A stretch of DNA of 27,102 bases from Planctomycetota bacterium (GTDB lineage: Bacteria; Planctomycetota; MHYJ01; JACPRB01), in contig JACPRC010000012.1 of the NCBI GenBank assembly GCA_016190175.1, positions 1-27,102 on the forward strand. The letters are read 5' to 3'. Position 1 is the stretch's first letter; the number at the start of each line of letters is the position of its first letter. Positions 1,407 through 22,305 of this stretch are shown here, in pieces. The position numbers and the translations under genes are program-made. The notes beneath the pieces were generated by a model. It saw nothing but the letters and a program-made list of their open reading frames with translations, was not told the origin of the DNA and made no database searches.

Positions 1407-2192
1407 CTACTCGACCACCTCGAACTCCGTCTCGCCTTCGAGCGTTCCCTGCCATGCCCGCGCGAGCATCGCCTTCGAGTTCCCCGCGAAGGACCAATCT
1501 CGGCTCGATGCCCCCTCCAACCGTCTCAGATCGAACTGGAACCGGTAGGACGCGCGGACCGTGTATCTCCCCGACTTGAGAGGGACCTGTTTCGCCTTCT
1601 CGTACGCCGCCTTCAGAGACGGATCCATGCCCCCGAGATCCCATTCCGCGCTGAAGTCGACGCTCCGGAGGGACGCCGACTTGCCCGGCTCGATGACGAA
1701 GAACCGATCCTCGGTCATGTGCCGGTGCACCATCACCTGGGGCAGGAAGCCCCCGGCGTAGCGGATGGGCTTCCCGTCCCGCAGCACGACGATCCGGCAG
1801 TCGGCGAGGAGCCCGCCGTCATGAATGAACTTGAGCGCCGTGACCGGGAAGTCCTCGACGTTCCTGATCTTCGCGTCGATGACGATCCTCTCGCCCGGCC
1901 TGTATTTCTTGCGGTCGCAGGATACTCCGAGTGTCAGGGCCTTTGCCTTGAGCGCGGCCTCGATCCGGTCCAGGATCGATCTTGCGCGGAGCCGCACCTC
2001 GCCGTCCCGGTGATCCAGGAGGGCCCGAACGGCGGAGACGGCGGGGCGACCGATCTTCACGAGCGCGGCGGTCGCCTCGTCCCGCACCTCCAGATCCTCG
2101 GAGGCCAGATCGTCGCACCATCTCCGGATACGCTCGTCGGTCGGAGGGTCCTGGGCGAACAAGACCATCGTCAGCAGTGTCTCGAGGATCAT
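1407..2192 (-). CDS. HEAT-repeat (PBS-lyase-like) protein with a C-terminal uncharacterised beta-rich domain. Start trimmed to the ATG at 2192 (MILETLL...) with an upstream GGAGG.
   Basis: HEAT-like repeats are visible (DLEVRDEATAALVKIG..., DGEVRLRARSILDRIE). The upstream 90 aa of the long ORF are Arg/Pro-rich and would overlap the divergent gene. GGAGG lies 5 nt before the ATG at 2192. Confidence 0.5.
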   Translation of the reverse strand: MILETLLTMVLFAQDPPTDERIRRWCDDLASEDLEVRDEATAALVKIGRPAVSAVRALLDHRDGEVRLRARSILDRIEAALKAKALTLGVSCDRKKYRPGERIVIDAKIRNVEDFPVTALKFIHDGGLLADCRIVVLRDGKPIRYAGGFLPQVMVHRHMTEDRFFVIEPGKSASLRSVDFSAEWDLGGMDPSLKAAYEKAKQVPLKSGRYTVRASYRFQFDLRRLEGASSRDWSFAGNSKAMLARAWQGTLEGETEFEVVE

Positions 2193-2331: not shown

Positions 2332-2362
2332 TTTGGACTTTTCGGCCGCCGCGCGCCATAAT
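2332..2362 (+). promoter_or_regulatory. Candidate sigma70-like promoter: TTGGAC-N18-CATAAT. The -10 element ends about 8 nt before the ATG at 2371, so the mRNA would be leaderless or nearly so. No SD is present.
   Basis: Direct reading. The -35 is 4/6 and the -10 is 5/6 to consensus. There is no GGAGG-like element upstream of the ATG. A C7 homopolymer and a polypyrimidine tract lie just upstream (2293-2330). Confidence 0.3.
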
Positions 2363-2370
2363 CCGCTCCC

Positions 2371-3639
2371 ATGAAACTCGCATGCGTCGGCGCCGGCGCC
2401 TGCTTCGCCAACGTCGTCGAGGACGTCCTGGCGAAGTGCCGCAAGAACAAGGACTCCGATTTCAAGTGGAAGGTGCTCTACGAGGCCCTCCAGCGCCCGG
2501 GACCGGGGCCGCAGTTCGAGGTCCACTACGTCGACTGCGGGCCCGAGCTCGCCCGCGCGAAGCAGAAGGGGGAAGTCTTCACCTACGACATCTCCAAGGG
2601 CGGCCTCCTCTCGGGCGCGGGCCACGTCGGCACGGGCGAGAAGTTCTTTCACGACGCCCAGTGGAGCGTCGTGCGGGACCTCCAGACGAACCTGAGCAAG
2701 AACCCGCCCGGCCTCTTCCTCTCGATCCGCGGCGGCGGCGCCACCAACTGCGGCGCGGGCTTCCAGCTCGACCGCGAGATCCTCGGGAAGTACGAGAACT
2801 CCGTCCTCCTCCAGTTCATCATCCTCCCCTACCGCGGCGAGGGGATCGAGGCGAGCCGCGTGGTGTACCTCGCCTGGCAGGTGCTGGAGCTCCTGCGCGA
2901 GTACCCCGACCGCTACGCTCCCGTCGTCATCTCGAACGAACAGATCCTGGCCGGCGCGCAGAGCTTCGAGAAGGCGGGGATGAACTGGTTCTACCCGCTC
3001 GCCAACACGATCGTCGCCGACGTGCTCGCGCGCATCCTCTATCCCACGCTCTATGCCGGCTCGGGCGAGAGCGGCGCGGTGGAGCAGGGCGCGTTCGAGC
3101 TGGACTCGCGGCAGAAGTACCTCGACATCCGCGACTTCGTCCGCCAGCCGGGCTTCCGCAGCGTCGGCTACGCCCACCTCGACGACACGGTGCCGCTCGA
3201 CCCGAAGGCGCTCGGGAAGCTCGTGAAGGACTCGCTCGGGGCTCTCCAGGTCGGGAAGATCCCGGACTCCGAGGAGCTGGGGCTGACGGGGAACCTCTCG
3301 CCGATGACGAACCCGCTCACGGCGTTCGCGCTCCTGACGGGTCCGCGCGGGGCGGTCGGCGACATCACGAAGGCGAAGCTCTCGGGCCTCCTCGAGGACG
3401 AGCTGCCCGGGTCGTTCCCCCGCGCGTACGCGTACGACATCACGCCGGGGAAGTACGAGTTCCTCCTTTTCCCGGGTGGCGGCGTCCCCGACGACATCCG
3501 CGCGTGGTGCGAGCGGTTCGGGAAGAACCTGCGCAACCCGCGGTACAAGGACGTCGTGAGCCAGGCGACGCACGACTTCGCGCGCGTCTGCGAGTACCAC
3601 GAGAAGCTCTGCGCGCAGTTCCAGATCAAGCCGGCATGA
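2371..3639 (+). CDS. Tubulin/FtsZ-superfamily GTPase (divergent tubulin-like protein), 422 aa.
   Basis: N-terminal glycine-rich T1-like loop CVGAGACFAN (tubulin: AGQCGNQ). T3-like LLSGAGHVGTGEKFF (tubulin: GQSGAGNNWAKGHY). T4-like signature RGGGATNCGAGF followed by DREILGKY (tubulin: GGGTGSG...SKIREEY). T7-like VISNEQIL (tubulin: IDNEALY; contains the catalytic Glu). Confidence 0.6.
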   Translation: MKLACVGAGACFANVVEDVLAKCRKNKDSDFKWKVLYEALQRPGPGPQFEVHYVDCGPELARAKQKGEVFTYDISKGGLLSGAGHVGTGEKFFHDAQWSVVRDLQTNLSKNPPGLFLSIRGGGATNCGAGFQLDREILGKYENSVLLQFIILPYRGEGIEASRVVYLAWQVLELLREYPDRYAPVVISNEQILAGAQSFEKAGMNWFYPLANTIVADVLARILYPTLYAGSGESGAVEQGAFELDSRQKYLDIRDFVRQPGFRSVGYAHLDDTVPLDPKALGKLVKDSLGALQVGKIPDSEELGLTGNLSPMTNPLTAFALLTGPRGAVGDITKAKLSGLLEDELPGSFPRAYAYDITPGKYEFLLFPGGGVPDDIRAWCERFGKNLRNPRYKDVVSQATHDFARVCEYHEKLCAQFQIKPA

Positions 3640-4694
3640 CCTACGACGTCGTCGTGGTGGGCGGCAGCGTCGCGGGCGCCGTGACCGCGCGGGAGCTGGG
3701 CCGCCGCGGGCTCCGCGTGGCGCTCGTCGAGAAGGCGCGGTTCCCCCGCCTCAAGCCGTGCGGGGAGGGACTGCTGCCCCACGGAGCCGCTGCGCTCGTC
3801 GGAATGGGGCTTCGCTACCCGGGCGAACCGGTGCGGGGGCTGCGCTTCGTCTCCCCCTCCGGCATCGTCGCGCAGGCGGACTTCCCGTGGGGCCGGGGGA
3901 TGGTCGTCCGCCGCGACCGCTTCGACGAGTTCCTCCTCCGCTCCGTCGGTCCCAACGTCGATGTCTTCGAGGGCACGTCCTACGATCCGCGCCGCTTCCC
4001 CGCGCGATGGATCGTCGGTGCCGACGGCGTGCGTTCGCAGTTCCACCGCCGTCCGGAATTCCGCGCCCGGCCGCCGCGCCACGTCCGCGTCGGCCTGAGC
4101 ACGCACGTGCGCGGGCTGCGCATCGACCGTGAACGGGTGGAGGTGGTCCTGTTCGAAGGCGGCGAGATCTACCTCGGGCCGTCGCACGGAGACGAGGCGC
4201 TCGTCGCGTGCCTCTATTGGAAGGAGGCGCTGCCGCGAGGGGCGTCCGGCGAGGAGCGTGTGCGGAAGACCCTCGAGGTCCGCCTGCCCGGCCGCGTCGG
4301 CCGCCTCGAGTTCACGTCCCCGTGTCTCGCGCTCGCGCCGCTGGGCCTCGCCGTGAACGGCGTCGCGCGCGACCCGGTCGTCCTGGTGGGGGACGCGGCA
4401 GGGACGCTGGATCCGCTGACGGGGGAGGGGATGTCGCTGGCGATCCTCTCGGCCCGCGCGGCGGCGGATGCGATCGCTTCCGGCGACCTGCGCGGCTATC
4501 CGCCCCGCCGGAAGGCGCTGGCGGCGGGCGCGGAGTGGCTGTCGCGGTGGATGCTGCGCGCGGCGCGGCGGCCGAAGGTCGCCGACCGCGTCGTGGCCGC
4601 GCTTGCGGACCGGCCCGCGCTGTTCGCGCGGCTCCTCGACATCGCCACGGGCGGGCGGGTGAGCTACGTCGCGCTGGCGCGGCTCGTGCTCTGA
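3636..4694 (+). CDS. FAD-dependent oxidoreductase of the geranylgeranyl reductase family. Translationally coupled to the tubulin-like gene by an ATGA overlap.
   Basis: N-terminal Rossmann motif VVVVGGSVAGAV. Motifs GADGVRS and VGDAAGTLDPLTGEGMS (FAD-binding GD motif). Its start ATG overlaps the upstream stop codon. Confidence 0.75.
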   Translation: MTYDVVVVGGSVAGAVTARELGRRGLRVALVEKARFPRLKPCGEGLLPHGAAALVGMGLRYPGEPVRGLRFVSPSGIVAQADFPWGRGMVVRRDRFDEFLLRSVGPNVDVFEGTSYDPRRFPARWIVGADGVRSQFHRRPEFRARPPRHVRVGLSTHVRGLRIDRERVEVVLFEGGEIYLGPSHGDEALVACLYWKEALPRGASGEERVRKTLEVRLPGRVGRLEFTSPCLALAPLGLAVNGVARDPVVLVGDAAGTLDPLTGEGMSLAILSARAAADAIASGDLRGYPPRRKALAAGAEWLSRWMLRAARRPKVADRVVAALADRPALFARLLDIATGGRVSYVALARLVL

Positions 4695-4695
4695 A

Positions 4696-5220
4696 TCACC
4701 GTTTCGTCCGGTTGTGGTGCTCCGTCGCGTCCAGGTCCAGCTTCCACTCGCCGCCCTCCCACACGAGGACGGCATCGGTGCGGAGCGTCGCGATCTTGCC
4801 GGTCCTCGGGTCGCGCAGCGGTTGCTCCGTCGTGATGACCCCTCGGTCCCCGTCCGCTCGACCGCCGAGATATCGGGCTTCCGAGAACGACCGGCGGTGG
4901 TCGGGATCCTCGAACAGGACCTCCTGCATGGCGAAATACAGTTCCTCGCCCGTCTCGTATGATGCGACGGGGCGCGGCAGCCTCGCCAGGTCCCGGTAGG
5001 CGGCCGCCTCGGCGGGGTCCGACTTCACCCGGTGCAGGATGGTGTCCCAGTAGCCCCGCACGGTGTCGCGGCTCCGCCGGGAGTGGAGCTGGAAGATGCG
5101 CCGCGCGTCCCGCCTCTGCGCGGCCGAGGTCAGGTGGGCGAAGTACTCCCGCGGCTCCGGACGCTCGTCCCGCTTCGTGCAGGCCGACAAGAGGATCAGC
5201 AGTACGACCGCGTGCCTCAT
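4696..5220 (-). CDS. Small lipoprotein of unknown function, 174 aa. Convergent with the flavoprotein gene with a 1-bp gap.
   Basis: This is the C-terminal part of the long antisense ORF 4696..7887. It starts at an internal ATG with signal peptide MRHAVVLLILLSAC (lipobox LSAC). The remainder of that long ORF is antisense to the kinase gene and Arg-rich (spurious). Confidence 0.5.
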   Translation of the reverse strand: MRHAVVLLILLSACTKRDERPEPREYFAHLTSAAQRRDARRIFQLHSRRSRDTVRGYWDTILHRVKSDPAEAAAYRDLARLPRPVASYETGEELYFAMQEVLFEDPDHRRSFSEARYLGGRADGDRGVITTEQPLRDPRTGKIATLRTDAVLVWEGGEWKLDLDATEHHNRTKR

Positions 5221-5278: not shown

Positions 5279-5311
5279 CACACCAAAAGTTGACAGGGAG
5301 CTTTTGGTGTG
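5279..5311 (+). repeat. Solo REP-like palindromic element: CACACCAAAAG-TTGACAGGGAG-CTTTTGGTGTG (11-bp stem, 11-nt loop).
   Basis: Perfect inverted-repeat arms read directly. Near-identical copy at 12097-12133 and a degenerate inverted copy at 11183-11215, both flanking the RAYT gene. Confidence 0.6.
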
Positions 5312-5361
5312 CAAGTCGCGAGGGTTATCTTCGGCTCCCCAATTCTGCTATAACCGCGCTC

Positions 5362-8300
5362 ATGGCCGACGCACCCGCCCCCGCGCCGCTCCGGCGCATC
5401 GGAGACATCGAACTTCTCCGCGAGGTCGGGCGCGGAGGCATGGGCGTCGTCTACGAGGGGCGGCAGGAGAAGCGGCGCGTCGCGGTCAAGGTCCTCCTCG
5501 GGGACGACTCCGATCCGGAAGCCGTCGTCCGGTTCCAGCGCGAGGCCTCCGCCGCGTCGATCCTCCAGCATCCGAACATCGTCCCCGTCACGCAATTTGG
5601 CCGGCACGAGGGGGTCTACTACTACGTGATGCCGTTCGTGGACGGCGAGTCGCTGGCGGCCCGCGTGCGGCGGCAGGGCGCCCTCGATCCGCGGGAGGCG
5701 GCCCGCTTCGCGCTGCAGGCCGCGCTCGCTCTCGACCACGCCCACCGGTTCGGCATCGTCCACCGCGACATCAAGCCCGCGAACCTGATGCTGGGCGAAC
5801 GGCTCATGGTCACCGACTTCGGCCTCGCGAAGGCGCTCGCTGCGCCGACGCTCACGGCCGCCGGCACCGTCGTGGGGACGCCCGCGTACATGAGCCCGGA
5901 GCAGGCGGCCGGCCTCAAGGTGGGGTCGCGGACGGACATCTACTCGCTCGGTGCCACCCTGTACGAAATGGCGACGGGGCGCGTGCCGTTCCAGGAGCGC
6001 GACGTCGCGCTGCTGCTCCGCCGGATCGAGGAGACCGATCCGCCGCTGCCCTCCACGATCCGCGCGGTCCCGCGGGACCTCGAGACGATCCTCCTGCGAG
6101 CGATGCAGAAGGACGCATCGCTCCGGTATCCGACGGCGGCGGAGATGGCGGAGGACCTCGGCCGGTTTCTCGCCGGACAGTCCATCCGCGCCCGGCGGAC
6201 GGGGTCGGTCCGGAAGCTCGCGCGCTGGGTCGGGCGCAGCCGGGCGCTTCCGGCCGCGGTCGTCCTGCTCTCGGCGCTCGTCGTCGCCGGCGTCTTCGCG
6301 CTCCGTTCGAAACGCGAGGTCGCGAAAGTCCGCACCGAGGGCCGCGAGAAGGAGGACGCAGCCCGCCGGGCGCAGGCGGAGCGCGCGTTCGCGGCGGCGG
6401 AGGTCCTCTTCGGCGAGAAGAAATGGGACGAGGCGCGCAAGCTCTACGAGGAAGTCGTGGCGCTGGGCACGCCCCTTGCGTTCGAGGCGAAAGCGGCGCT
6501 GGCCGAACTGGCGCTGGCGGCGGGGCGCCTCGACGACGCCCGCCGGTGGATCGAGACCCTGGGCCGGCCGCCGCTCCTCGCCGCGAAGCTGGCGCTGCGC
6601 GAGGGGGAGTGGCGCAGGGCGATCGAACTCGCGAAGAGCGTCCCGGACGAGCCGGACGCGTGGGACGTTCTCATCGAGGCGCACACGGCGCTCAAGGATC
6701 TCGACGCGGCGCGCGCGGCGCTGAAGGAGAAGGTGGAGCGGCAGCGCGCGAGGGCGCAGCTCCTTCTGCGCGAGGCGGACGCGGTCGTCGAGTCCGAACC
6801 CGGACGCGCGGAGCGTCTCTACCGGCGGGCGCTCGCCCTGTGCGATGCGGTCGGGATGGAGGCGCCGGCCGCGGCGGGACGCTGCGGGAGGCTCCTCTTC
6901 GCCCGCGGGCTCGGGCGCGAGGCGCTCCCCTACCTCGACCGTGACCCGGCGCAGTCGTACTGGAGCGTCCGCGTCCGCGTGGATCTGGGCTTGTGGCACG
7001 ACGCGCACGCGCGCTTCCGCCCGCGCGACCTCGACCGCGAGTCGGCGGAGACGGGACTGCAGATCGGCCTGGCGATGCTCGACCCGACCCTGGTCCGGGC
7101 GTGCCTCCCGCACGTCGCCGACCCGCGCCTCCGCTCGCTGGCGACCGGCGAGTCCGAAGATCCCGTGCTCCGGGCGCTGGTGAGCTCGCGGGCGGGCGAT
7201 TGGGAGCGGGCCCTGCCCCATGCGACCGACCCGACCGTGCGAGGCACGCTTCTCTTCCGCCTGGAGCGGACCGTCGAGGCCGCGCGCGAGTTCGAGAAGT
7301 CGCGCGACCCGCTGGGACGCATCGCCTGCGCGTACGAGCTGCGAGGCGCCCGCGCGGCGCGCGAGCTTGCGGAAGGCGCGCCGGGGGGCGATGCCGTCCG
7401 CGTCGCGCGCGTCCTGCTGCTCCTGCTGGAGGACCGGACGAAGGAGGCGCTCGAGGTGCTGATGGCCCTCTTCGAGGAGCAGCCCCCGATCCCGGCCGTG
7501 GCCCTGCTCGTCTTCCGGCTCCAGGACGTGATCCTGCGGATGCCCAAGGAGCCTCTCGACCGGCTTACGCGCAAGTTCGAGAACATCTTCCTCCGAAGGT
7601 TTCTCTCGGGCGACCGGCGCGAGTTCGAACGCATCCTCTGGCCGCAGCTCAATCTCGGGTTCCGGATGCTCGTGCCGATGATGCGCGACCTGGCGCCGTA
7701 CCGCATGTGGCAAGCCGATCAGGACTGGTACGTCGGGAACTCCCCCTCCGAGACGTCGATCCTGGCTCTCCTCGAGGACGCCGCCGGCGGCGCGCCGCAG
7801 ATCCGCGAGCTGGCGGAACAGCGCCTCCGAGCCCTGGATCCGGCGGCGATCCTCGTCCTGGAGCAGATCGCCGTTCGGAAGGGCCATCCGCGCGCGGAGG
7901 CCGCGCGCCGCTGGGCGGAAGTCCTGGCGGAACGGAGACGGCAGGAGCAGCGGATGAGACTCGGCAGCTTCGTGCGGCTGTACTCATACCACAAGGTGGT
8001 GACCTCGCTGTTCGGGGACGAGCTTTCCCTGAAGGATTGCCTGCTCAAACTGACCTTGTTCCGGGAGGCCGCGGGGGACCTCAAGGCACCGGAAGCCACG
8101 GCCGTGCTGGAGACGTACGCCCGGGACGAGAATCTCTCCGTCGCCATCACGGCGCTGCAGGGACTGTACGCGGTCGATCGCGCCGCCTTTCTCCGACATC
8201 TGGGAAGCAGGGCGGGCCTGCTCGCCGCCGCCCTGGTGGACACGGTCTCGTTGAGAGAGCCGCTCGAATCCGCGCTGAAGACCGCTCCGGAAGAACTGCG

Positions 8301-11145
8301 ACCGCTGGCGGTCGTGCTCCTCGCGTCGATCGGCACCCGCGCGGAGACCTCCTCAGCCTGGAGCCGCGCGCTTGCGGACGCCCTGCTGGGCGGCACGGCG
8401 CCGTCCGCCTCCGATCCCGATCCCGTCGTGCGCGCGATGTGCGCCCTCGTCTTCGGGATGCGCGACGACCCCGGGCCGCTGATGACGCTCCTGGACGATC
8501 CGGATCCGCGGGTCGTCGAGGCGGCGCTCCTGGCGCTCCTGAGGGAGGATCCCGCGGATCCTCTGGAAACGGTGCCGTGCCCCTCCACGTGGGCCTATTT
8601 CCTGCTGGCGGCGAAGGCGGAGAAGAAACCGCCCGCGATCGCCCGGCTGCCCGCGTCGGAGCATGGCCGCATCGAAGCGGCCCTCCGCACGATCGCCGGG
8701 AAGACGCGGGCCGCGACGTCCCATCGGCTGGTGCTGGGACTCATGACGCGGGTGCCCATCGGCGTCGATCTCCTCCGCGGCGTGCTCCTGCGTTCTTTTC
8801 CCTCGTCGGGCGCGATCCGCGAGGGATTCGACCGCCAGGCTGCGCTCCAGCCGCGGGCGGAACTGGAGTCGCTTCTTCGGGAACTCGTGCAGACGGCGCC
8901 CCGCGAAGTCCGCCCGCGCTATTTCGAGGTCGCCTCGCAGAAGTCCCTCCTGACTGCGGACGATCTTCTCGGACAGATGGAATCCGACCTTCCCAAGATC
9001 CGGCTGGCGACACGCGACCTTCTCGTCCCGCTCCCCGACGCGCGCGCTGCGGCGCTCCTGGACCACGAGGATCTGCACGTCCGGCGGAACGCGGCTTGCC
9101 TCTTCGTTCTGTGGCACCTCGCCAGGACGCCGGGGTTCGGCTCCCTCTTCGCGCCGGCCACCTCGCCCCGTCGCTGCCAGACGCTGGCGTGGGCGCTGGC
9201 CCGGTTCGCCCTCGCCCCTTTCCACAAGAGGCGCGAGACGCCGGCGCTTTGGGGGGGGGAGATGATCAACGTGGAGATGATCAACTGGGAGGAGTTCGCA
9301 CCGTTCCGGGTCTCGGGAAAACTGCGCGTCAAGTCGCCCGAGGATGCGATCAAGCTGCTGCGCCTTGCGGTCGACCTCGATCCGTCCGACTCGAGCCTCC
9401 GGTACCACCTGGGATCGATGCTGGCGAGTCGAAGGTCCCACGCGGAGGCGATTGAGGCCCTTCTTGCGGCGGTCGAGAAACTCCCGCCGGAGTACGAGCA
9501 GATGCGCGCCGAGGCGTGCGAGAAGCTGGGGGAGGAGTATCTTGCGTCGAAGGACCCGGAGAACGCCATTCTCTGGCTTGAGCGATCGATGGCCTCCTTG
9601 CCCGAGCGGCCGGGTCCGCTCGCAAGGCTCGGAGAGGCGCTGATCCTCCGGGGGGAGTACGCGACCGCGGAGGCGAAGCTGACTCGTGCCCTCGACCTCG
9701 ACCCGCGGTCTGGAGAGGCGTACCTCATGCGAGGGCGCGCGCGGAAGAAACTGGGTCGTCTCGACGAGGCCGCCGTGGACTTGAGCAACGCGCTCGCCTA
9801 CGGAGGGAAGCCGACGGAGGAGGACAAGTCGGGGCTCGACTTCGACCGCGCGCTGCTGCCCTCGCTTCTGGAACGGATGCGCTGGGCGCGGACCGATGAC
9901 GAGCGCCTGAAGCTCGTCGGACACCTCAGACCGCTGATCGAGGGGGTCCCGTCTTCGGTCCGGGAGTGGCTCTCCTCAAGCAACTCCCTCCACCGCCGGA
10001 ACGCCGTCGCCGTGATCGCCGCAGTCTCGGACAGCCGCCGGGAGGAAGCGGACTGGGACGCGCTGGCCGCTGCGGCCGGCGATCCCGATCGGAGGGTGCG
10101 CCTGGCCGCCCTGTCGGCCTTGCGGGATGCGGAGGCGCGGCCGAGCGAGAGGGGAAGGTCGGACCTGCTGGCGGCCGCGCGGTCCGCCTTCCGTTCCGGG
10201 GATGAGGGACTTCGGGACGCGGCCCTGCCCGTCCTGGCCGCATGTCCGCTCGCGGAGGTCTGGGGCGAGCTTCTGGACTACATCGACCTGCCGCTACCCG
10301 TGATGGGCAGGGCGACGCAGCTCGCGAACCGCATGCGGGCTCTCGCCAGGTTCCTCAAGGAGGCGAAGCGGCTGCCCGCCGGGGCGGCGGAGCGGCTCCG
10401 TGCTTCGGCGGCGGTCGAAACGTGGGTCGTCCGTTTCGCGGCCGGCGAGCGCGGGGCGCGCTTCGTCGAGTCGCTCGTCGCGGCGCTGGTCGACGCCGAC
10501 CCGGCTCGGCGCGAGTACGCCGACGTCCTCGGCGCCGAATGGGACCCCGGGTTCGAGCAGGTTGCGGAAACTTGGATGGACCGTTCCGACCCCCACGCGG
10601 GCATCTACCTTGCCGGGTACGCGCCGGAGTTGTGGAAGAGGGCGGTCGATCGCCTGGCCGAGCTGGCCGTCCTGATCGACCATGCAATCGAGGCTCTCTT
10701 CCACCGTCGCGTCAGCGAGGGGGAGTCCTGTTGGCGCGGGCTTTCGGAGCCGCTGCTCGCGGTTCTGTGCCGTCTCCTGCCGGCGCGGACGGAGGCCGCA
10801 TGCGAGGTGGTCCGTCACTACGCGGCGCGGGCCGCGGGGCCGTCGCTTCGGACGATCGTGGGCGACGGGCGGGCGGCCGTCCGCGACCGGCTGGACGCGG
10901 CCGCGACGCTCGCCGAGATCGGCGAGGACGGGGGCGCGGAGTTCGTGGTCGAGGCGCTCCGGGGCCGGCTGGCGGGTGCAAGGGAGTACGCCGACCTCAA
11001 GCACGCGATCTGGCTCATCTGCCTCCGCGCGGCGGGGAAATCGGGGCGCAAGGAGTTCGTCCCCGTCCTGCGGGAATGCGCGGAGAAGTTCGAGGACAAT
11101 CACCTTCGCAAAGAGGCCGCCGCTGCGCTCCGCCAGTTGCAGTAG
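5362..11145 (+). CDS. Giant membrane Ser/Thr protein kinase, 1928 aa: N-terminal Hanks-type kinase, one TM helix, then about 1600 aa of HEAT/TPR repeats.
   Basis: Kinase motifs GRGGMGVVYEG, VAVK, HRDIKPANLML, DFGLA, GTPAYMSPE. TM segment LPAAVVLLSALVVAGVFAL. HEAT-like DPDPVVRAM..DDPDPRVVEAALLAL. TPR-like segment around 9300-9800. Start placed at ATG 5362 (MADAPAP...), downstream of the REP element. Confidence 0.8.
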   Translation: MADAPAPAPLRRIGDIELLREVGRGGMGVVYEGRQEKRRVAVKVLLGDDSDPEAVVRFQREASAASILQHPNIVPVTQFGRHEGVYYYVMPFVDGESLAARVRRQGALDPREAARFALQAALALDHAHRFGIVHRDIKPANLMLGERLMVTDFGLAKALAAPTLTAAGTVVGTPAYMSPEQAAGLKVGSRTDIYSLGATLYEMATGRVPFQERDVALLLRRIEETDPPLPSTIRAVPRDLETILLRAMQKDASLRYPTAAEMAEDLGRFLAGQSIRARRTGSVRKLARWVGRSRALPAAVVLLSALVVAGVFALRSKREVAKVRTEGREKEDAARRAQAERAFAAAEVLFGEKKWDEARKLYEEVVALGTPLAFEAKAALAELALAAGRLDDARRWIETLGRPPLLAAKLALREGEWRRAIELAKSVPDEPDAWDVLIEAHTALKDLDAARAALKEKVERQRARAQLLLREADAVVESEPGRAERLYRRALALCDAVGMEAPAAAGRCGRLLFARGLGREALPYLDRDPAQSYWSVRVRVDLGLWHDAHARFRPRDLDRESAETGLQIGLAMLDPTLVRACLPHVADPRLRSLATGESEDPVLRALVSSRAGDWERALPHATDPTVRGTLLFRLERTVEAAREFEKSRDPLGRIACAYELRGARAARELAEGAPGGDAVRVARVLLLLLEDRTKEALEVLMALFEEQPPIPAVALLVFRLQDVILRMPKEPLDRLTRKFENIFLRRFLSGDRREFERILWPQLNLGFRMLVPMMRDLAPYRMWQADQDWYVGNSPSETSILALLEDAAGGAPQIRELAEQRLRALDPAAILVLEQIAVRKGHPRAEAARRWAEVLAERRRQEQRMRLGSFVRLYSYHKVVTSLFGDELSLKDCLLKLTLFREAAGDLKAPEATAVLETYARDENLSVAITALQGLYAVDRAAFLRHLGSRAGLLAAALVDTVSLREPLESALKTAPEELRPLAVVLLASIGTRAETSSAWSRALADALLGGTAPSASDPDPVVRAMCALVFGMRDDPGPLMTLLDDPDPRVVEAALLALLREDPADPLETVPCPSTWAYFLLAAKAEKKPPAIARLPASEHGRIEAALRTIAGKTRAATSHRLVLGLMTRVPIGVDLLRGVLLRSFPSSGAIREGFDRQAALQPRAELESLLRELVQTAPREVRPRYFEVASQKSLLTADDLLGQMESDLPKIRLATRDLLVPLPDARAAALLDHEDLHVRRNAACLFVLWHLARTPGFGSLFAPATSPRRCQTLAWALARFALAPFHKRRETPALWGGEMINVEMINWEEFAPFRVSGKLRVKSPEDAIKLLRLAVDLDPSDSSLRYHLGSMLASRRSHAEAIEALLAAVEKLPPEYEQMRAEACEKLGEEYLASKDPENAILWLERSMASLPERPGPLARLGEALILRGEYATAEAKLTRALDLDPRSGEAYLMRGRARKKLGRLDEAAVDLSNALAYGGKPTEEDKSGLDFDRALLPSLLERMRWARTDDERLKLVGHLRPLIEGVPSSVREWLSSSNSLHRRNAVAVIAAVSDSRREEADWDALAAAAGDPDRRVRLAALSALRDAEARPSERGRSDLLAAARSAFRSGDEGLRDAALPVLAACPLAEVWGELLDYIDLPLPVMGRATQLANRMRALARFLKEAKRLPAGAAERLRASAAVETWVVRFAAGERGARFVESLVAALVDADPARREYADVLGAEWDPGFEQVAETWMDRSDPHAGIYLAGYAPELWKRAVDRLAELAVLIDHAIEALFHRRVSEGESCWRGLSEPLLAVLCRLLPARTEAACEVVRHYAARAAGPSLRTIVGDGRAAVRDRLDAAATLAEIGEDGGAEFVVEALRGRLAGAREYADLKHAIWLICLRAAGKSGRKEFVPVLRECAEKFEDNHLRKEAAAALRQLQ
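9251..9288 (+). repeat. G9 homopolymer (9251-9259) followed by a 15-bp tandem duplication (GAGATGATCAAC-GTG / GAGATGATCAAC-TGG), inside the kinase CDS.
   Basis: Direct reading. Encodes WGGEMINVEMINW. Confidence 0.5.
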
Positions 11146-12157: not shown

Positions 12158-13033
12158 TCAGAGCCGGAAGCGGTCGGGCGTGAGGACGACACGCTCGCGC
12201 GGCCGGTCCCACGACCAGCGCCCGACAAGATCCGCCGGGCGCGCCGCGGTCACGTCGAAGCCGCTCCACCGGGCGACGGCGCCGATGACGCGTTCGGGCG
12301 CCACGCCGCGCGCGCGGTACGTCGAGATCCGCCCGTCGCCGTGGCGCTTTGCGAGGCGCTTCCCGTCGGGGCCGACGACGAGCGGCACGTGGCCGTACGC
12401 CGGGACCGGGGCGCCGAGCTTGCGGTAGAGGAGGATCTGCCGCGCGGTCGAGGGAATCAGATCGTCGCCGCGCACCACCTCGGTGACGCCCATCGCGATG
12501 TCGTCGGCGACGACGGCGAACTGGTACGCCGGGTCGTCGGGCGACTTCGCGACGACGAAATCGCCGACGGTGCCCGCGACGTCGATCTCGTGGCGGCCGG
12601 AGAGGAGGTCGTCGAAAGCGAGGACGCCGGGCTCGACGCGGAAGCGCCATGACCGCGCGACCGGGGGCGGATGTTCCCGGCACGTCCCCGGATAGCGCGG
12701 CTCGGCATCCCCCTCGTGCGGCGCGGCCTGCTCGAGGTCGGCGCGCGAGCACGCGCACGGGTAGGCGTCGAGCTTCGGGAAGAGCGCGCGGTAGCGGTCG
12801 CGCCGCTCCGTCTGCCGCACCGGCCCCTCGTCCCAGTCGAAGCCGAGCCACGCCAGCTCCTCGACAAGCCGCTCGCACGCGCCGGGCTTGACGCGGTTCG
12901 TCTCCAGGTCCTCGATCCGGAGGATCACACGCCCGCCTTGCGAGCGCGCGGAGAGCCAGGCCCAGAGGAACGTGCGGACGTTGCCGAGGTGGAGCGAGCC
13001 CGTCGGGCTGGGCGCGAGGCGGCCGACGACCAT
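12158..13033 (-). CDS. gluQ: Glutamyl-Q tRNA(Asp) synthetase (a GluRS paralog lacking the anticodon-binding domain).
   Basis: Class-I aaRS motif PTGSLHLGN (HIGH variant). At 291 aa it is truncated relative to GluRS. KRHG region present. Codon usage typical of the genome. Confidence 0.75.
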   Translation of the reverse strand: MVVGRLAPSPTGSLHLGNVRTFLWAWLSARSQGGRVILRIEDLETNRVKPGACERLVEELAWLGFDWDEGPVRQTERRDRYRALFPKLDAYPCACSRADLEQAAPHEGDAEPRYPGTCREHPPPVARSWRFRVEPGVLAFDDLLSGRHEIDVAGTVGDFVVAKSPDDPAYQFAVVADDIAMGVTEVVRGDDLIPSTARQILLYRKLGAPVPAYGHVPLVVGPDGKRLAKRHGDGRISTYRARGVAPERVIGAVARWSGFDVTAARPADLVGRWSWDRPRERVVLTPDRFRL

Positions 13034-18425: not shown

Positions 18426-20636
18426 CTACTGCCCGAACATCTCGCGGAGCCGCGGTCCCGCGTCCGGGTCCTCCAGGAGGGGCTGGAGGTACGAGTCCTT
18501 CATGGCGAACACCTTCGCCAGGACGAAGAAGGCGGGCGCGCGGTGGATGTACTTGAACCGAACCGGCGGTCCCGTCCCCTTCGTGAACAGGCCGTACTCG
18601 CCGGCGGCGGTCGCGTGCTTGATCGCGTTCTGGATGGAAGCCAGGACCGGGCGGCCCTGCTTCGCCGTCGCGCAGGCAAGATGGTACTCGGCGGGGTAGT
18701 AGTTCGTGAGCTGCGAGAACTTGCGTCCCGCCTGCTCCAGCCGGTTCTGGAGGAGATCGAGGACTCCCTGGAGATAGGTCCTCAGGTTGCTCCCAGGGAT
18801 GATCTGGACGATCGGCTCCGCCTCCCGGAACCGGCCCTGCTCGATGTGGCAGAGGGCGCGCAGGCACAGAACGGCCTCGTGCCCGCCCTTGGGGAGACGG
18901 GAGGCGGCATCGAGGATATTCTCGGCATCCTGCAGCCGGCCGTAGGTGAGGTGGGTCAGGGCGGCGATCGCCCCCATGACCGGGGTGGGGAAGTCCTCGA
19001 GGAGCTGCGGCATCTGGGACGCGTGATCGCCGTTCTTCCTGGCGTTGTAGGAGGCGATGGCCAGGAGGAGGCGGAACTCCGGAGCGGGGCCTTTGCCGCG
19101 CCGTTCCTCCTGCGGCGCCGCGACCTCGGTGTCCTTCTCGTCGAGGAGCTTGTTCACGGCGCCGGTGAAGGGCAGGTTGGAGAACTTGTCGAGCGCTTCG
19201 TGGACGGCGACGAACCGCGGGTCCTTGAGGAGACTCCGGAAGTCGATGCGATAGGGGCGGTCGACGAGCCGGAACGGTCCCGAGTTGGTCATGATGATGC
19301 CCAACTGGATCGCGCGGACCTCCCCTTCGGGTGCGCCCCGCCGCACCGCGTCCTCGAGGAGGCCGAGCGCCTCCTGATCGCGGCCCAGGAGGATCTCGGC
19401 GCGCGCGGCGACGTTGTGGCCCCAGATGTCCTTGGGGTTGCTCTCGATCGCGCGGCGCGCGAGGTCGCGGAGCCGGGCGACCTCCGCATCGCGCACGTTG
19501 AGCTCGCCGTTCAGCAAGGCGCGCCCGCCGCGCCTCCAGGGGTACGGTTCGAAGTTGCGGGGGGGCAGGTCTCCGTCGGCGGCCGGTTTCGGGATCGCGG
19601 GGAGCGGAAGGCCGACCCGGGCGGCCGGCAGACCGGGATCCGGCCTCACGGCAATGGCGATCGCGGCGCCGACCAGGACCAGCCCGGTTGCCGCCGCCGC
19701 GGGCATCCAGGTCCGGCGGACGATCCGCAGCACGGCCGACGGCGCGCGCGCGGAGACGTCCCCCCCGCCGAGCCACGAGCGAAGCTCCTTCGCCAGCGCG
19801 CCCGCGGAGGGATAGCGGTCCTCCTTCCGCTTCGCCATCGCCTTGAAGACGATCGCGGCGAGCTCCTTTGGAACCTCCTTGAGGGGCGGAGCGTCGAGGG
19901 CAAGGATCTGCTGCATCACGCCGAACGGGGTCGAGGCGCGGAACGGCAGCCGTCCCGAGAGCATCTCGTACATCAGGACGCCCAGGCTGTAGACGTCCGA
20001 CCGGGCGTCCACGTCGGCGGGCGACCCGTCCGCCTGCTCGGGCGACATGTAGTAGGGCGTCCCGATGACCGCGCCCGTGCGCGTCACGCGCTCGTCCTTG
20101 CCTATCGTGCGGGAGAGGCCGAAATCGACGAGCACCGGCCGCCCCTCCCCCGTGATGAGGATGTTGGACGGCTTGACGTCGCGATGGACGACGCCCTGGC
20201 GATGAGCGTGTTCGAGGGCCTCGGCGATCAGGACGAAACACTGCACCTTGCGGCGCGTCGGCGCGGCGGCGATGCTCGACAGCGGTTTGCCGCCGACGAG
20301 GTCCATCACCAGGAACGGCCGCCCATCGACGTCGCCGATCTCGTGGATCCGGACGATGCCCGGATGGGGCGCGCGCGACGGGGCGCGCGCCTCGCGGAGG
20401 AGCCGCTCGTAGTCCGTCTTGGAGAGCGAGGGCGGGAGGATCTTGAGGGCGACGTCGCGGTCGAGCGTGGGGTCGTGCGCCTTCCAGACCACGCCGACGC
20501 CGCCGCGGCCCAGCTCCTCGAGGAGGCGGAAGCGCCCGAACGAGGCCTGCTGCGGCACGGGCGCGGCCGGCTCCTCCTTCTCGAAGACGTTGCGGCACAG
20601 CCGGTCGAACACGGACTCGCGGGGCTTATCCGCCAT
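18426..20636 (-). CDS. Membrane Ser/Thr protein kinase: N-terminal Hanks kinase, a TM helix, and a C-terminal TPR-like helical domain.
   Basis: Motifs GRGGVGVVWKA, VALK, HRDVKPSNILI, DFGLS, GTPYYMSPE. TM segment LVLVGAAIAIAV. Its start overlaps the upstream sigma-factor stop by 11 nt. Confidence 0.85.
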   Translation of the reverse strand: MADKPRESVFDRLCRNVFEKEEPAAPVPQQASFGRFRLLEELGRGGVGVVWKAHDPTLDRDVALKILPPSLSKTDYERLLREARAPSRAPHPGIVRIHEIGDVDGRPFLVMDLVGGKPLSSIAAAPTRRKVQCFVLIAEALEHAHRQGVVHRDVKPSNILITGEGRPVLVDFGLSRTIGKDERVTRTGAVIGTPYYMSPEQADGSPADVDARSDVYSLGVLMYEMLSGRLPFRASTPFGVMQQILALDAPPLKEVPKELAAIVFKAMAKRKEDRYPSAGALAKELRSWLGGGDVSARAPSAVLRIVRRTWMPAAAATGLVLVGAAIAIAVRPDPGLPAARVGLPLPAIPKPAADGDLPPRNFEPYPWRRGGRALLNGELNVRDAEVARLRDLARRAIESNPKDIWGHNVAARAEILLGRDQEALGLLEDAVRRGAPEGEVRAIQLGIIMTNSGPFRLVDRPYRIDFRSLLKDPRFVAVHEALDKFSNLPFTGAVNKLLDEKDTEVAAPQEERRGKGPAPEFRLLLAIASYNARKNGDHASQMPQLLEDFPTPVMGAIAALTHLTYGRLQDAENILDAASRLPKGGHEAVLCLRALCHIEQGRFREAEPIVQIIPGSNLRTYLQGVLDLLQNRLEQAGRKFSQLTNYYPAEYHLACATAKQGRPVLASIQNAIKHATAAGEYGLFTKGTGPPVRFKYIHRAPAFFVLAKVFAMKDSYLQPLLEDPDAGPRLREMFGQ

Positions 20637-21375
20637 CCTTCTCCCCGCTGCCGAACAGGTACTGCATCTCGGCGTCGAGGTCCGACGGGTCGGTGACGGA
20701 CTGGAGCACGCGGTCGCGGAGGAAGCTGCGCAGGTCCGCGCGCACGCGGCGCAGCGCCCCGCGGACGGCGTCCTCGGTCACGCCGGACCGGTGCGAGAGG
20801 TCCGCGTACGAGGGCGGCGCCGGCGCGAGGTCGTACGCCTCGAAGATCTTGAAGACGTTCTCGCGTCCCGACTGCCGGTACTGGGTCCGCAGCGCCGCGA
20901 TCGCGTCCTGCATCAGCGCCTGCGCCCAGACGCGGTCGAAGGCGCGCTCGACGGACTCCGTCTTCGCCGGGAGCTGGAACAGGGGTTCCTCCGCCGCATC
21001 GATCGAGACGGGCCTCGACCCGCCGCCCCGCTTGATCCTCCCCTCGTCGCGTTTCTGGTTGAGCATGAAGTGCTCCAGCGCCGCGCGGACGAAGGAGCGG
21101 AAGCGCCCGCGGTCGGGCGAGACGGACTTGAGGAAGTCCTTCTCGAGGAACGTGGCGAAGAACTCCTGCGTGAGGTCCTTCGCGTCCTCGTTCCCGCGGT
21201 TCCACCGCAGGCGCACGAGCCAGTACACGGGCTTCCAGTAGTAGCGGCAGAGCTTCTCCAGGTTGGCCTGGGATTCCTTGTCACTCGCGTCGCGGGCGCC
21301 GAGGATGACGGTCCACAGGGTGGGCGGGAAGGCGCCGCCGGGGCCGCCGAGCTGGGTGACGGGGTCGACGTTCAT
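20626..21375 (-). CDS. ECF-type sigma-70 family sigma factor (the STK-associated type) with a C-terminal extension.
   Basis: Region-2-like LEKLCRYYWKPVYWLVRLRWNRGNEDAKDLTQEFF. Region-4 HTH-like SYADLSHRSGVTEDAVRGALRRVRADL. The ATG at 21375 overlaps the upstream stop (ATGA). Confidence 0.7.
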   Translation of the reverse strand: MNVDPVTQLGGPGGAFPPTLWTVILGARDASDKESQANLEKLCRYYWKPVYWLVRLRWNRGNEDAKDLTQEFFATFLEKDFLKSVSPDRGRFRSFVRAALEHFMLNQKRDEGRIKRGGGSRPVSIDAAEEPLFQLPAKTESVERAFDRVWAQALMQDAIAALRTQYRQSGRENVFKIFEAYDLAPAPPSYADLSHRSGVTEDAVRGALRRVRADLRSFLRDRVLQSVTDPSDLDAEMQYLFGSGEKDGG

Positions 21376-21998
21376 AGGTATCGCAGCAGCGCGCCGATCT
21401 CCTCGGGCATCTCCTCCGCGGTGCAGTACTCGCCGACGAGGCGCTCGATCTCCGCCTTCAGTTTCAACTTCGCGCGATGGACATGGTTGGTTACATCGCC
21501 CTCGCTGCGCCCGAGCGCGGCGGCGATCTCCTTGTAGGACTTCCCCCCGATCTGGAGCTCGAGGGCCGCGAAGTGGGGGTCGGGGCGCAGCCGTTCCATC
21601 GCGCGCCCGACGAGGTTCCGCACCCACAGCCGGTCGAACTCGGCGTCCGGGGGCGCCTCCGCGGGGAGATCGAAGTCGCCGAGCGCGACCTCGCGGCGCC
21701 GGTCGCGCGCGCCCGCGAGCGCGTGCCGGCGGTGCGAGGCGATCACGTGCCGCGTGACGGCGAGGAGGAGGTTGCGGAACCTCCCCTTGCTGCGGTCGGC
21801 CTTCCCCAGGAACTCCTCGCGGCAGACGCGGAGGAACACCTCCTGGGCGACGTCCTCGGCATCCTCGGGAGGGATCCCCTGCGCGCGCGCGAAGTCGACG
21901 ACGGGCTGCCGGTATCGGCGCACGACGAGGTCCTTGACGCGCTCGGGGTCGCTGCGGACCTGGAGGAGGCACGTCCACATCGTGGAGGGAAGCGGCAC
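21372..21998 (-). CDS. ECF-type sigma factor with a C-terminal extension. Start is the GTG at 21998 or the ATG at 21980.
   Basis: Region-2-like DFARAQGIPPEDAEDVAQEVFLRV. Region-4 SYKEIAAALGRSEGDVTNHVHRAKLKLK. TATACT lies 6 nt upstream of the GTG at 21998, so the transcript may be leaderless. Confidence 0.7.
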   Translation of the reverse strand: MPLPSTMWTCLLQVRSDPERVKDLVVRRYRQPVVDFARAQGIPPEDAEDVAQEVFLRVCREEFLGKADRSKGRFRNLLLAVTRHVIASHRRHALAGARDRRREVALGDFDLPAEAPPDAEFDRLWVRNLVGRAMERLRPDPHFAALELQIGGKSYKEIAAALGRSEGDVTNHVHRAKLKLKAEIERLVGEYCTAEEMPEEIGALLRYL

Positions 21999-22248: not shown

Positions 22249-22277
22249 TTGACCCCCGCCGAACCCCGCGATAGATT
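22249..22277 (+). promoter_or_regulatory. Candidate sigma70-like promoter TTGACC-N17-TAGATT upstream of the MVP-like gene.
   Basis: Direct reading. The -10 ends about 28 nt before the ATG at 22306. GGAGG lies 8 nt upstream of that ATG. Confidence 0.3.
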
Positions 22278-22305
22278 GCCTCCCGCCCATATGGGAGGAA
22301 GAGAC

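Follow-up and report, generated by a model that had tools for sequence, protein, structure and literature searches.

A divergent tubulin/FtsZ-superfamily protein of uncultured Planctomycetota and its small bacterial-archaeal family

The tubulin-like gene and its locus

The window, by which we mean the whole analysed contig of 27.1 kb (27,102 nucleotides, 68.6% G+C) from a Planctomycetota bacterium, carries an open reading frame (2371-3639), whose 422-residue product is named a hypothetical protein by NCBI (locus tag HYY17_00750). The frame is present as described in a first-pass annotation, which had taken the product for a divergent bacterial tubulin-like guanosine triphosphatase (GTPase). 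Our analysis supports the view that the product is a divergent, chromosomal, single-copy protein of the tubulin/FtsZ superfamily, which probably lies outside all named families. The gene is preceded by a divergently transcribed gene and followed by the gene of a flavin adenine dinucleotide (FAD)-dependent oxidoreductase and by a small convergent gene (Table 1). The G+C content at third codon positions (GC3) of the tubulin-like gene, 0.96, is the same as that of neighbouring genes, and no compositional anomaly was seen. The ratio of non-synonymous to synonymous substitution rates (dN/dS) in the tubulin-like family was 0.12-0.17, indicating purifying selection.

Table 1. Positions of the tubulin-like gene, its mapped elements and the flanking features in the window
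Feature	Position	Strand	Residues	Description
HEAT-like gene	1407-2192	-		upstream, divergent; sub-threshold HEAT_2 match
Putative sigma-70-like promoter	2334-2362	+		TGGACT-N17-CATAAT (or TTGGAC with an 18-nucleotide (nt) spacer); ends 8 nt 5′ of the ATG
Tubulin-like gene	2371-3639	+		422 amino acids (aa): N-terminal GTPase domain, core helix H7, T7 loop, C-terminal beta-sheet domain, three C-terminal helices
T1 loop	2389-2412	+	7-14	GAGACFAN; invariant in 13/13 members; aligns with the GxGxxG T1 of P0021 and AtubA
T2 loop			D55...E59	from the loop map
T3 loop	2608-2640	+	80-90	LSGAGHVGTGE; counterpart of GAGN in Asgard tubulin and of GVGAN in CetZ
T4 loop	2728-2760	+	120-130	RGGGATNCGAG; GGATNCG (122-128) for tubulin GGGTGSG
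T5 loop	2827-2850	+	153-160	PYRGEGIE; FtsZ/CetZ type P-[FY]-x-x-E-G; aligns with CetZ LPFREEG
T6 loop and start of H6	2932-2949	+	188-193	SNEQIL; aligns with AtubA DNEALF and P0021 SNEQII
Core helix H7	2986-3054	+	206-228	helix 209-228 in the model
T7 loop and H8	3106-3153	+	246-261	SRQKYLDIRDFVRQPG; core KYLDIRDF (249-256); between H7 and a short helix (253-257) in both models
C-terminal domain and three helices	3154-3636	+	helices 374-417	S7-H9-S8-H10-S9-S10; helices in place of tubulin H11/H12
FAD-dependent oxidoreductase gene	3636-4694	+		352 aa; geranylgeranyl-reductase/UbiH-like group; ATGA overlap with the tubulin-like stop
Lipoprotein-like gene	4696-5220	-		small, downstream, convergent; signal-peptide- and lipobox-like N-terminus

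Membership of the tubulin/FtsZ superfamily

The Pfam profile PF00091 matched the window protein below its cut-off (E = 0.11; 13.2 bits versus a gathering score of 33), and the same sub-threshold match was found in 9 of the 13 aligned members of the family described below. The window protein had no match to FtsZ_C and none in NCBIfam, PADLOC or the PHROGs. Searches of all PDB sequences, made by phmmer with the window protein and separately with the family profile, returned nothing relevant. The marginal PF00091 score and the lack of a PDB sequence match for either query would fit a protein that is not a tubulin relative at all, such as a nucleotide-binding protein of Rossmann-like or other type whose glycine-rich motifs arose by chance. 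The predicted structures and two bridging sequences leave this explanation virtually no chance of being correct.

The structure of the window protein was modelled by AlphaFold2 on the 13-sequence family alignment. The model had a predicted local distance difference test score (pLDDT) of 70.8 and a predicted TM-score (pTM) of 0.77; pLDDT was 85-90 in the N-terminal domain and 82-93 in the C-terminal helices. When the model was compared with the PDB by Foldseek, the top 50 matches were all tubulins, with E values of about 5e-12 and TM-scores of about 0.6. A separate model of P0012, an archaeal family member 46% identical to the window protein, had pLDDT 75.8 and pTM 0.82 and displayed the same order of elements: DSSP assigned S7-H9-S8-H10-S9-S10 and then three C-terminal helices in both. 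The models thus contain the two-domain fold made up of the GTPase domain, H7 and the C-terminal sheet domain, with a T7 segment between H7 and H8.

At the sequence level the family is linked to the superfamily by two proteins of about 500 aa each, P0020 and P0021, its sole detectable more distant relatives. An exhaustive search of 1.84 billion representatives with the family profile returned ten proteins in all, which were family members or fragments and, beyond the family, only P0020 (E 3.6e-5) and P0021 (E 5.1e-5). P0021 clears the gathering score of Pfam Tubulin (55 bits versus 33, E 1.5e-14), and hhalign aligned it with the family over residues 2-229 (probability 95.9%, E 6e-9). BLASTP with an archaeal family member matched both P0020 and P0021 (2.5e-7 and 5.8e-6). 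Since PF00091 scores below its cut-off for the family and above it for P0021, the link to the superfamily is made transitively. An extended profile built from the family, P0020 and P0021 matched CetZ (3zid; 2e-5) and the Asgard tubulin AtubA (8e-5, over positions 2-222) in the PDB; weaker matches were Heimdall beta-tubulin (3e-4), yeast beta-tubulin (0.01), BtubA (0.035) and FtsZ (0.08). Comparison of the family by hhalign with a single beta-tubulin sequence gave a short match at T4 only (E 0.056). The match to a single Escherichia coli FtsZ sequence was rejected as spurious, single-sequence templates being too weak. P0021 itself also matches a PhuZ entry among the PHROGs (E 5e-7), and when P0021 was used as the query for homologues, it retrieved nothing but itself. 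Taken together, the fold model, the links to P0020 and P0021 and the matches of the extended profile bear out the original description of the protein as a divergent member of the tubulin/FtsZ type.

The GTP-binding loops were mapped from the secondary structure of both models in combination with MAFFT, profile and hhalign alignments. The motifs GAGACFAN (residues 7-14), SGAG (81-84), GGGATNCGAG (121-130) and SNEQIL (188-193) are all found at the positions first given for them. Their assignment to loops had to be revised in part. SNEQIL had been taken for T7 with a catalytic Glu, which was wrong: it is T6, aligned with the tubulin motif DNEAL, which we take to be the T6 loop and the start of H6, and it fits the strand-helix junction of the model (strand 182-188, helix 189-194). 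The real T7 is the segment at 246-261 with Asp255. The statement that T3 and T7 are nearer to tubulin than to FtsZ holds for T3, whose family consensus SGAGN is tubulin-like in having Asn right after GAG, and fails for T7, where the catalytic position is occupied by Asp.

T4 had been listed among the loops of the tubulin/FtsZ type. Its position and register stand: hhalign puts residues 122-128 on residues 140-146 of beta-tubulin, and MAFFT aligns the loop with P0020 and P0021, which have GGT(S/G). The literal signature [SAG]-G-G-T-G-[SA]-G is not matched, the family having G-G-A-T-N-C-G at this place, with G123, A124, T125, N126, C127, G128 and G130 invariant in the 13 members. Invariant residues of T5 are P153, R155, G156, E157 and G158. 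In H7, Y208 and N212 do not vary in the family or in P0020 and P0021; their spacing presumably corresponds to that of Tyr224 and Asn228 of tubulin, which contact the base.

Ten residues of the T7 segment are identical in all 13 members (K249, L251, D252, R254, D255, F256, R258, Q259, P260 and G261). In a register assigned by inspection, D252 and D255 probably occupy the acidic positions of N-x-D-x-x-D/E. We take T7 to be in register with NVDFAD of FtsZ and NVDLTE of tubulin, so that the residue at the catalytic position, Asp255, is that of FtsZ and not the Glu of tubulin. The window protein is put together like a mosaic, tubulin-like in T3, T6, the contacts of H7 and the helices of the C-terminus, FtsZ/CetZ-like in T5 and T7, and unique in T4.

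Gene neighbourhoods, hosts and origin

The first-pass annotation had suggested that the tubulin-like protein and the flavoprotein encoded downstream could form a module of a filament and a lipid or prenyl reductase, acting in membrane remodelling or as a cytoskeletal unit. The overlap of the tubulin-like stop codon with the flavoprotein start codon was confirmed as ATGA at 3636-3639. The view that the two genes are translationally coupled is supported for this genome. The identity of the flavoprotein as a FAD-dependent, geranylgeranyl-reductase-like enzyme was upheld in its first part by a match passing the Pfam FAD_binding_3 cut-off. The second part is less firm: its best NCBIfam match, the geranylgeranyl-reductase subfamily TIGR02032, did not reach the cut-off (128.2 versus 158.8 bits), and the substrate class is therefore uncertain. 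The best PDB matches were halogenases and archaeal geranylgeranyl reductases, through the FAD-binding N-terminus.

Eight distinct planctomycete contexts and two archaeal contexts of the tubulin-like gene were compared. In the window, the tubulin-like and flavoprotein genes lie between the HEAT-like and lipoprotein-like genes, both on the minus strand. In L003 a BNR gene, the tubulin-like gene and, after a gap of 27 nt, the flavoprotein gene and a GDH gene follow each other in one direction. In L021 an unknown gene on the minus strand is followed by the tubulin-like gene, a SnoaL_2 gene and the flavoprotein gene, the last three overlapping by 4 nt at each junction. The tubulin-like gene of L007 stands between a GT4 gene (minus strand) and the gene of a 403-aa protein of unknown function, that of L001 between a PhoU-like gene (minus strand) and a HEAT-VWA gene. 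In L009/L013 it lies beside Mrp antiporter genes (minus strand) and upstream of the gene of a 484-aa multi-pass membrane protein, read as an H+-pyrophosphatase; in L014 it precedes a 384-aa gene on the minus strand, and in L022 it follows IS110 and HNH genes. In the two archaeal contexts (L006/L015 and L016-18) the genes on either side of the tubulin-like gene encode giant surface proteins that span the membrane once and carry NosD/beta-helix, PKD or Ig domains.

The flavoprotein gene was found downstream in only three of the eight planctomycete contexts, namely the window, L003 and L021; it was absent downstream in L001, L007, L009/L013, L014 and L022 and in both archaeal contexts. When all flanks were compared by BLAST, the flavoprotein was the only recurring partner, limited to these three closest relatives, and the HEAT-like, HEAT-VWA, H+-pyrophosphatase-like and other neighbours were each restricted to one context. 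The tubulin-like proteins of L003 and L021 are the two closest relatives of the window protein (82% and 76% identity), and their flavoprotein orthologues are 59-65% identical. The SnoaL_2 (NTF2-like) gene of L021 (3091-3477), placed between the tubulin-like and flavoprotein genes, suggests a small metabolic cassette downstream.

An obligate two-component system for membrane remodelling, in which a filament organises a lipid or prenyl reductase or is regulated by it, would be favoured by the ATGA overlap in the window, the 4-nt overlaps of all three L021 genes, and an orthologous flavoprotein downstream in L003 and L021 in spite of otherwise different flanks. The pair is missing, however, from five of the eight planctomycete and both archaeal contexts; it is interrupted by the SnoaL-like gene in L021 and by the 27-nt gap in L003, and the flavoprotein, which scores below the geranylgeranyl-reductase cut-off, is less conserved than the tubulin-like protein (62-65% versus 76-82% identity). 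We regard the obligate system as distinctly unlikely. The synteny that the module idea called for is thus confined to three loci, and none of the observations connects the tubulin-like protein with the remodelling of lipids or membranes. The pair of genes is probably a genuine operon in the sub-clade and is not family-defining; we propose that the flavoprotein gene is an operon passenger or a lineage-specific partner and not a core component.

In the archaea, the giant surface proteins whose genes lie just upstream of the tubulin-like genes (L015 1041-7826, L016 4364-7780, L006 1-2448) end in a transmembrane helix, a cytoplasmic linker and a conserved motif of about 45 aa; of the three distinct proteins, two have a proline-rich linker. 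The motif, G-x-D/E-x-x-[KR]-ARN-x-[LF]-[KR]-[LI]-A-[KQ]-x-[FY]-x-x-KG..., is common to paralogues and resembles a helical hairpin of the TPR type. A cytoplasmic partner, for instance the filament, might dock there.

Upstream of the tubulin-like gene, one promoter-like site was found compared with 0.1 expected in shuffles. Because the CATAAT box ends 8 nt before the ATG at 2371 and no Shine-Dalgarno sequence lies between the two, the mRNA is likely to be leaderless or nearly so. In six of the eight planctomycete loci (window, L003, L001, L007, L021 and L022) a (C/G)ATAAT or TAAAAT box is located 6-8 nt 5′ of the start, and in L009 and L014 a -10-like box is found 11-12 nt 5′ of it. Across the eight loci no Shine-Dalgarno sequence precedes the tubulin-like start; the archaeal members have a GGAGG-like sequence in place of the -10-like box. 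With the box kept among the planctomycete relatives, the leaderless-type promoter first suggested is plausible, and the gene of the window probably has its own promoter and a leaderless mRNA.

The family is small. Searches yielded 14 matching clusters among 5.8 billion, and two full-length clusters at 50% identity, besides fragments, among the 1.84 billion representatives. One GTDB species representative and six metagenome loci carry the family. Its members are 422-449 aa long. Ten sequences on high-G+C contigs are 62-82% identical to the window protein, and three of them (P0001, P0002 and P0006) trace to records named Planctomycetes, Planctomycetales or Planctomycetota. Three further clusters (P0012-14) are 45-47% identical to the window protein; their contigs encode a CTP-dependent riboflavin kinase, an HVO_0163-type helix-turn-helix protein and a single-domain KaiC-like ATPase. 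CTP-dependent riboflavin kinase is presumably an archaeal enzyme, and every organism-named homologue of this kinase came from a Thermoplasmata, Thermoplasmatales, Thermoplasmatota or Euryarchaeota archaeon. This small family, which had not been annotated before, thus occurs in a restricted set of uncultured Planctomycetota as well as in uncultured Thermoplasmatota archaea.

The P0020 gene (L019 10001-11506) and the P0021 gene (L020 6632-8143) each lie within a co-directional cluster of large proteins that have no Pfam match. The two flanking clusters have no detectable similarity to each other or to the neighbours of the family. The P0020 contig is archaeal, as the gene of the DNA polymerase D small subunit adjoins P0020; the P0021 contig had no genes informative for host assignment. 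We infer one old transfer between the domains, archaea to Planctomycetota being the more likely direction; it would be old since the gene has taken on the composition of its host. A precedent for transfer from an archaeon to the Planctomycetota-Verrucomicrobiota-Chlamydiota (PVC) group is the verrucomicrobial BtubA/B pair, for which an Asgard origin was reported (PMC13394414). In L022 the P0006 gene is directly preceded by genes for a transposase of the IS110 family and for an HNH endonuclease (584-2983); nothing else in the vicinity of any member hints at mobility.

The patchy distribution across domains could also be explained if the protein served to segregate the DNA of an integrated plasmid or prophage in the manner of TubZ or PhuZ. 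No TubR-like gene, no small helix-turn-helix gene and no iteron array was found beside the gene, and searches near it for tubC-like iterons, Rfam RNA families and tRNAs gave none. The lack of PHROG and PADLOC matches, the GC3 equal to that of the neighbours and the ordinary chromosomal surroundings in most loci point the same way. Among the viral tubulins of BFVD the best match of the model had E 1e-8, compared with 5e-12 for the cellular tubulins of the PDB, these values coming from separate searches of different libraries. A segregation role of this type is therefore highly improbable, and TubZ/PhuZ identity was rejected.

As to the other genes of the window, the first-pass annotation was right that a gene diverges from the tubulin-like gene; its product as a HEAT-repeat protein is backed only by the sub-threshold HEAT_2 match (E = 0.0028; 18 bits versus the Pfam cut-off of 27.7). 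The product of 4696-5220 is read as a lipoprotein from its N-terminal sequence. About 70 nt from this gene starts that of a Ser/Thr protein kinase with TPR and HEAT repeats (5290-11145, plus strand, 1951 aa), and a second Ser/Thr protein kinase with TPR repeats is encoded at 18426-20636 (minus strand, 736 aa). The gene at 12158-13033 (minus strand, 291 aa) encodes a class I Glu/Gln tRNA-synthetase catalytic domain alone and is read as GluQ-RS-like. A 740-aa protein resembling the major vault protein (MVP) is encoded at 22249-24471 (plus strand), with matches to the shoulder domain PF11978 (E 1.4e-31) and the vault repeat PF17795 (3.2e-9); upstream of it, on the opposite strand, lies the gene of an extracytoplasmic function (ECF) sigma factor (21372-21998).

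Predicted function and comparison with known families

We consider it fairly probable that the gene at 2371-3639 is the founding member of a small tubulin/FtsZ-superfamily family whose product forms GTP-dependent filaments and has an archaeal-planctomycete history. By analogy with the known members of the superfamily, GTP would be bound in the N-terminal domain through T1-T6 and through Y208 and N212 of H7. The subunits would assemble head-to-tail into protofilaments, in which D252 and D255 in T7 of one subunit would complete the GTPase site of the next. Hydrolysis would be coupled to polymerisation, as in FtsZ, CetZ and tubulin, and would drive the dynamics of the filament. The strongest argument for polymerisation is the invariance of T7, because its residues have no role in the monomer.

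Several observations weigh against this interpretation. GTP binding and polymerisation are properties that we infer. The main reasons for caution are the aberrant T4 and residue 85 of the window protein. T4 departs from the near-universal GGGTGSG, with two Gly replaced and an invariant Asn-Cys in the loop, so nucleotide binding could be altered. In the window protein residue 85 (codon 2623-2625) is His, where the other 12 aligned members have Asn; the His could be genuine or stem from a fault in the assembly. The model of the window protein is poor at residues 232-250, just before T7, and at 315-362, and four of the five models had pLDDT values of 55-58. The family profile alone matches nothing in the PDB, and the sequence link needs the two bridging singletons. 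The probable direction of the transfer was judged from P0020, which is archaeal, and P0021, which has no host assignment. Finally, the flavoprotein gene has remained downstream of the tubulin-like gene in three genomes that share none of their other flanking genes, which speaks for a measure of selection to keep the two together in the sub-clade.

The deviations in T3 and T4 of the window protein, and the lack of a recognisable partner or membrane anchor, could mean that the protein is a pseudo-enzyme or scaffold with a tubulin fold, which has lost GTPase-coupled polymerisation and whose altered T4 pocket serves another ligand or none. All other mapped nucleotide contacts are invariant, however (T1 Gly, T2 Asp/Glu, T3 GAG, T5 Glu-Gly, T6 Asn, H7 Tyr/Asn), as are both acidic residues of T7, which are relevant only at the polymer interface, and the family is under strong purifying selection. 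We therefore hold the pseudo-enzyme to be unlikely, and prefer the filament-forming GTPase. A bolder version of the preferred reading, which we put forward as doubtful, is that the protein is a working cytoskeletal element acting in division, budding or cell shape, which moved between Thermoplasmatota and Planctomycetota and has a modified T4 pocket with unusual nucleotide handling; it would be a second and independent instance, after BtubA/B, of an archaeal tubulin-family protein taken up by a PVC bacterium.

Cell division and microtubules both depend on proteins of the tubulin/FtsZ superfamily. Deep branches described earlier (CetZ, TubZ, PhuZ, artubulin, OdinTubulin and the Asgard tubulins) each informed the evolution of filament dynamics and function. 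The family described here is a new and very small part of this well-known superfamily; its signature loop is unusual, and it occurs in both bacteria and archaea. It combines the full predicted catalytic and polymerisation apparatus with the altered loop in two unrelated lineages, and adds a data point on the transfer of cytoskeletal genes between domains into PVC bacteria. FtsZ was reported absent across Planctomycetota (PMC11032199), where the only tubulin-like domains known are of the FtsZl1/Tubulin_2 type, which has no T6-H7 (PMC2875224, PMC8382908); this makes it notable that a protein with the complete FtsZ/tubulin fold occurs in the phylum. A previous survey, which collected homologues with PF00091 at E<=1e-3 (PMC9871819), would miss the family because of this threshold. 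The rarity of the family means that it is not a general planctomycete division protein, which limits its general importance. The window protein lends itself readily to expression, GTPase assays and electron microscopy.

Compared with tubulins sensu stricto (alpha/beta/gamma, BtubA/B, AtubA/B and OdinTubulin), the protein aligns over about 320-326 residues, the C-terminal helices included, and has the SGAGN of T3, the NE of T6 and the Y...N spacing of H7 in common with them. Identity is just 10-14%, and the features by which these proteins are recognised (a Tubulin_C (PF03953) match, the GGGTGSG signature and clear similarity) were not found. The catalytic position of T7 is Asp instead of Glu, T5 is short and FtsZ-like, and there is a single gene instead of an A/B pair; nothing points to lateral contacts of the microtubule type.

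Unlike FtsZ, with which only 257 residues align as against 326 with Asgard tubulin, the family has neither an FtsZ_C nor an NCBIfam FtsZ match. Its gene lies outside the dcw cluster among neighbours unrelated to cell division, and the protein ends in helices and not in a disordered linker with a conserved C-terminal peptide. On the strength of the smaller alignment, the missing FtsZ_C and the missing division-cluster context, FtsZ identity was rejected.

Both FtsZl1 and FtsZl2 resemble the family in being divergent, non-canonical and encoded outside the division cluster. FtsZl1 (Tubulin_2) has no recognisable T6-H7, carries coiled-coil and helical C-terminal regions and is often fused to a kinase (PMC2875224). 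The family, in contrast, has T6, H7, T7 and a canonical C-terminal domain; no member matched PF13809, and FtsZl1 identity was discarded. FtsZl2 is proteobacterial and has a C-terminal region of about 300 aa (Makarova & Koonin 2010, PMC2875224). Like FtsZl2, the family keeps all of T1-T7 and has no conserved gene partners. It was set apart from FtsZl2 by description, its members being 422-449 aa long and found in Planctomycetota and Thermoplasmatota, and no FtsZl2 appeared in the exhaustive profile search. TubZ and PhuZ differ from the family in their plasmid or phage context, TubR, centromere and PHROG matches.

Judged by sequence, the proteins nearest to the family are CetZ, which are tubulin/FtsZ-like cell-shape proteins of archaea, and the CetZ-like groups of archaea, which are loosely defined. 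The family profile alone did not detect CetZ. T4 is GGATNCG in the family and GGTGSG in CetZ, the GAGN of T3 is tubulin-like, and an extra helix (31-40) is inserted between H1 and S2. Most known members occur in Planctomycetota, where CetZ is unreported. On the side of likeness, CetZ 3zid was the best PDB match of the extended profile, in the T3-T5 region, and CetZ was also the best match of P0021. Both families have the T5 motif P-[FY]-x-x-E-G, and both have a helix or helices after S10 and no C-terminal domain recognisable by Pfam. Both, finally, have archaeal members and a sparse, variable genomic context, and sparse CetZ-like groups have been described (PMC9871819).

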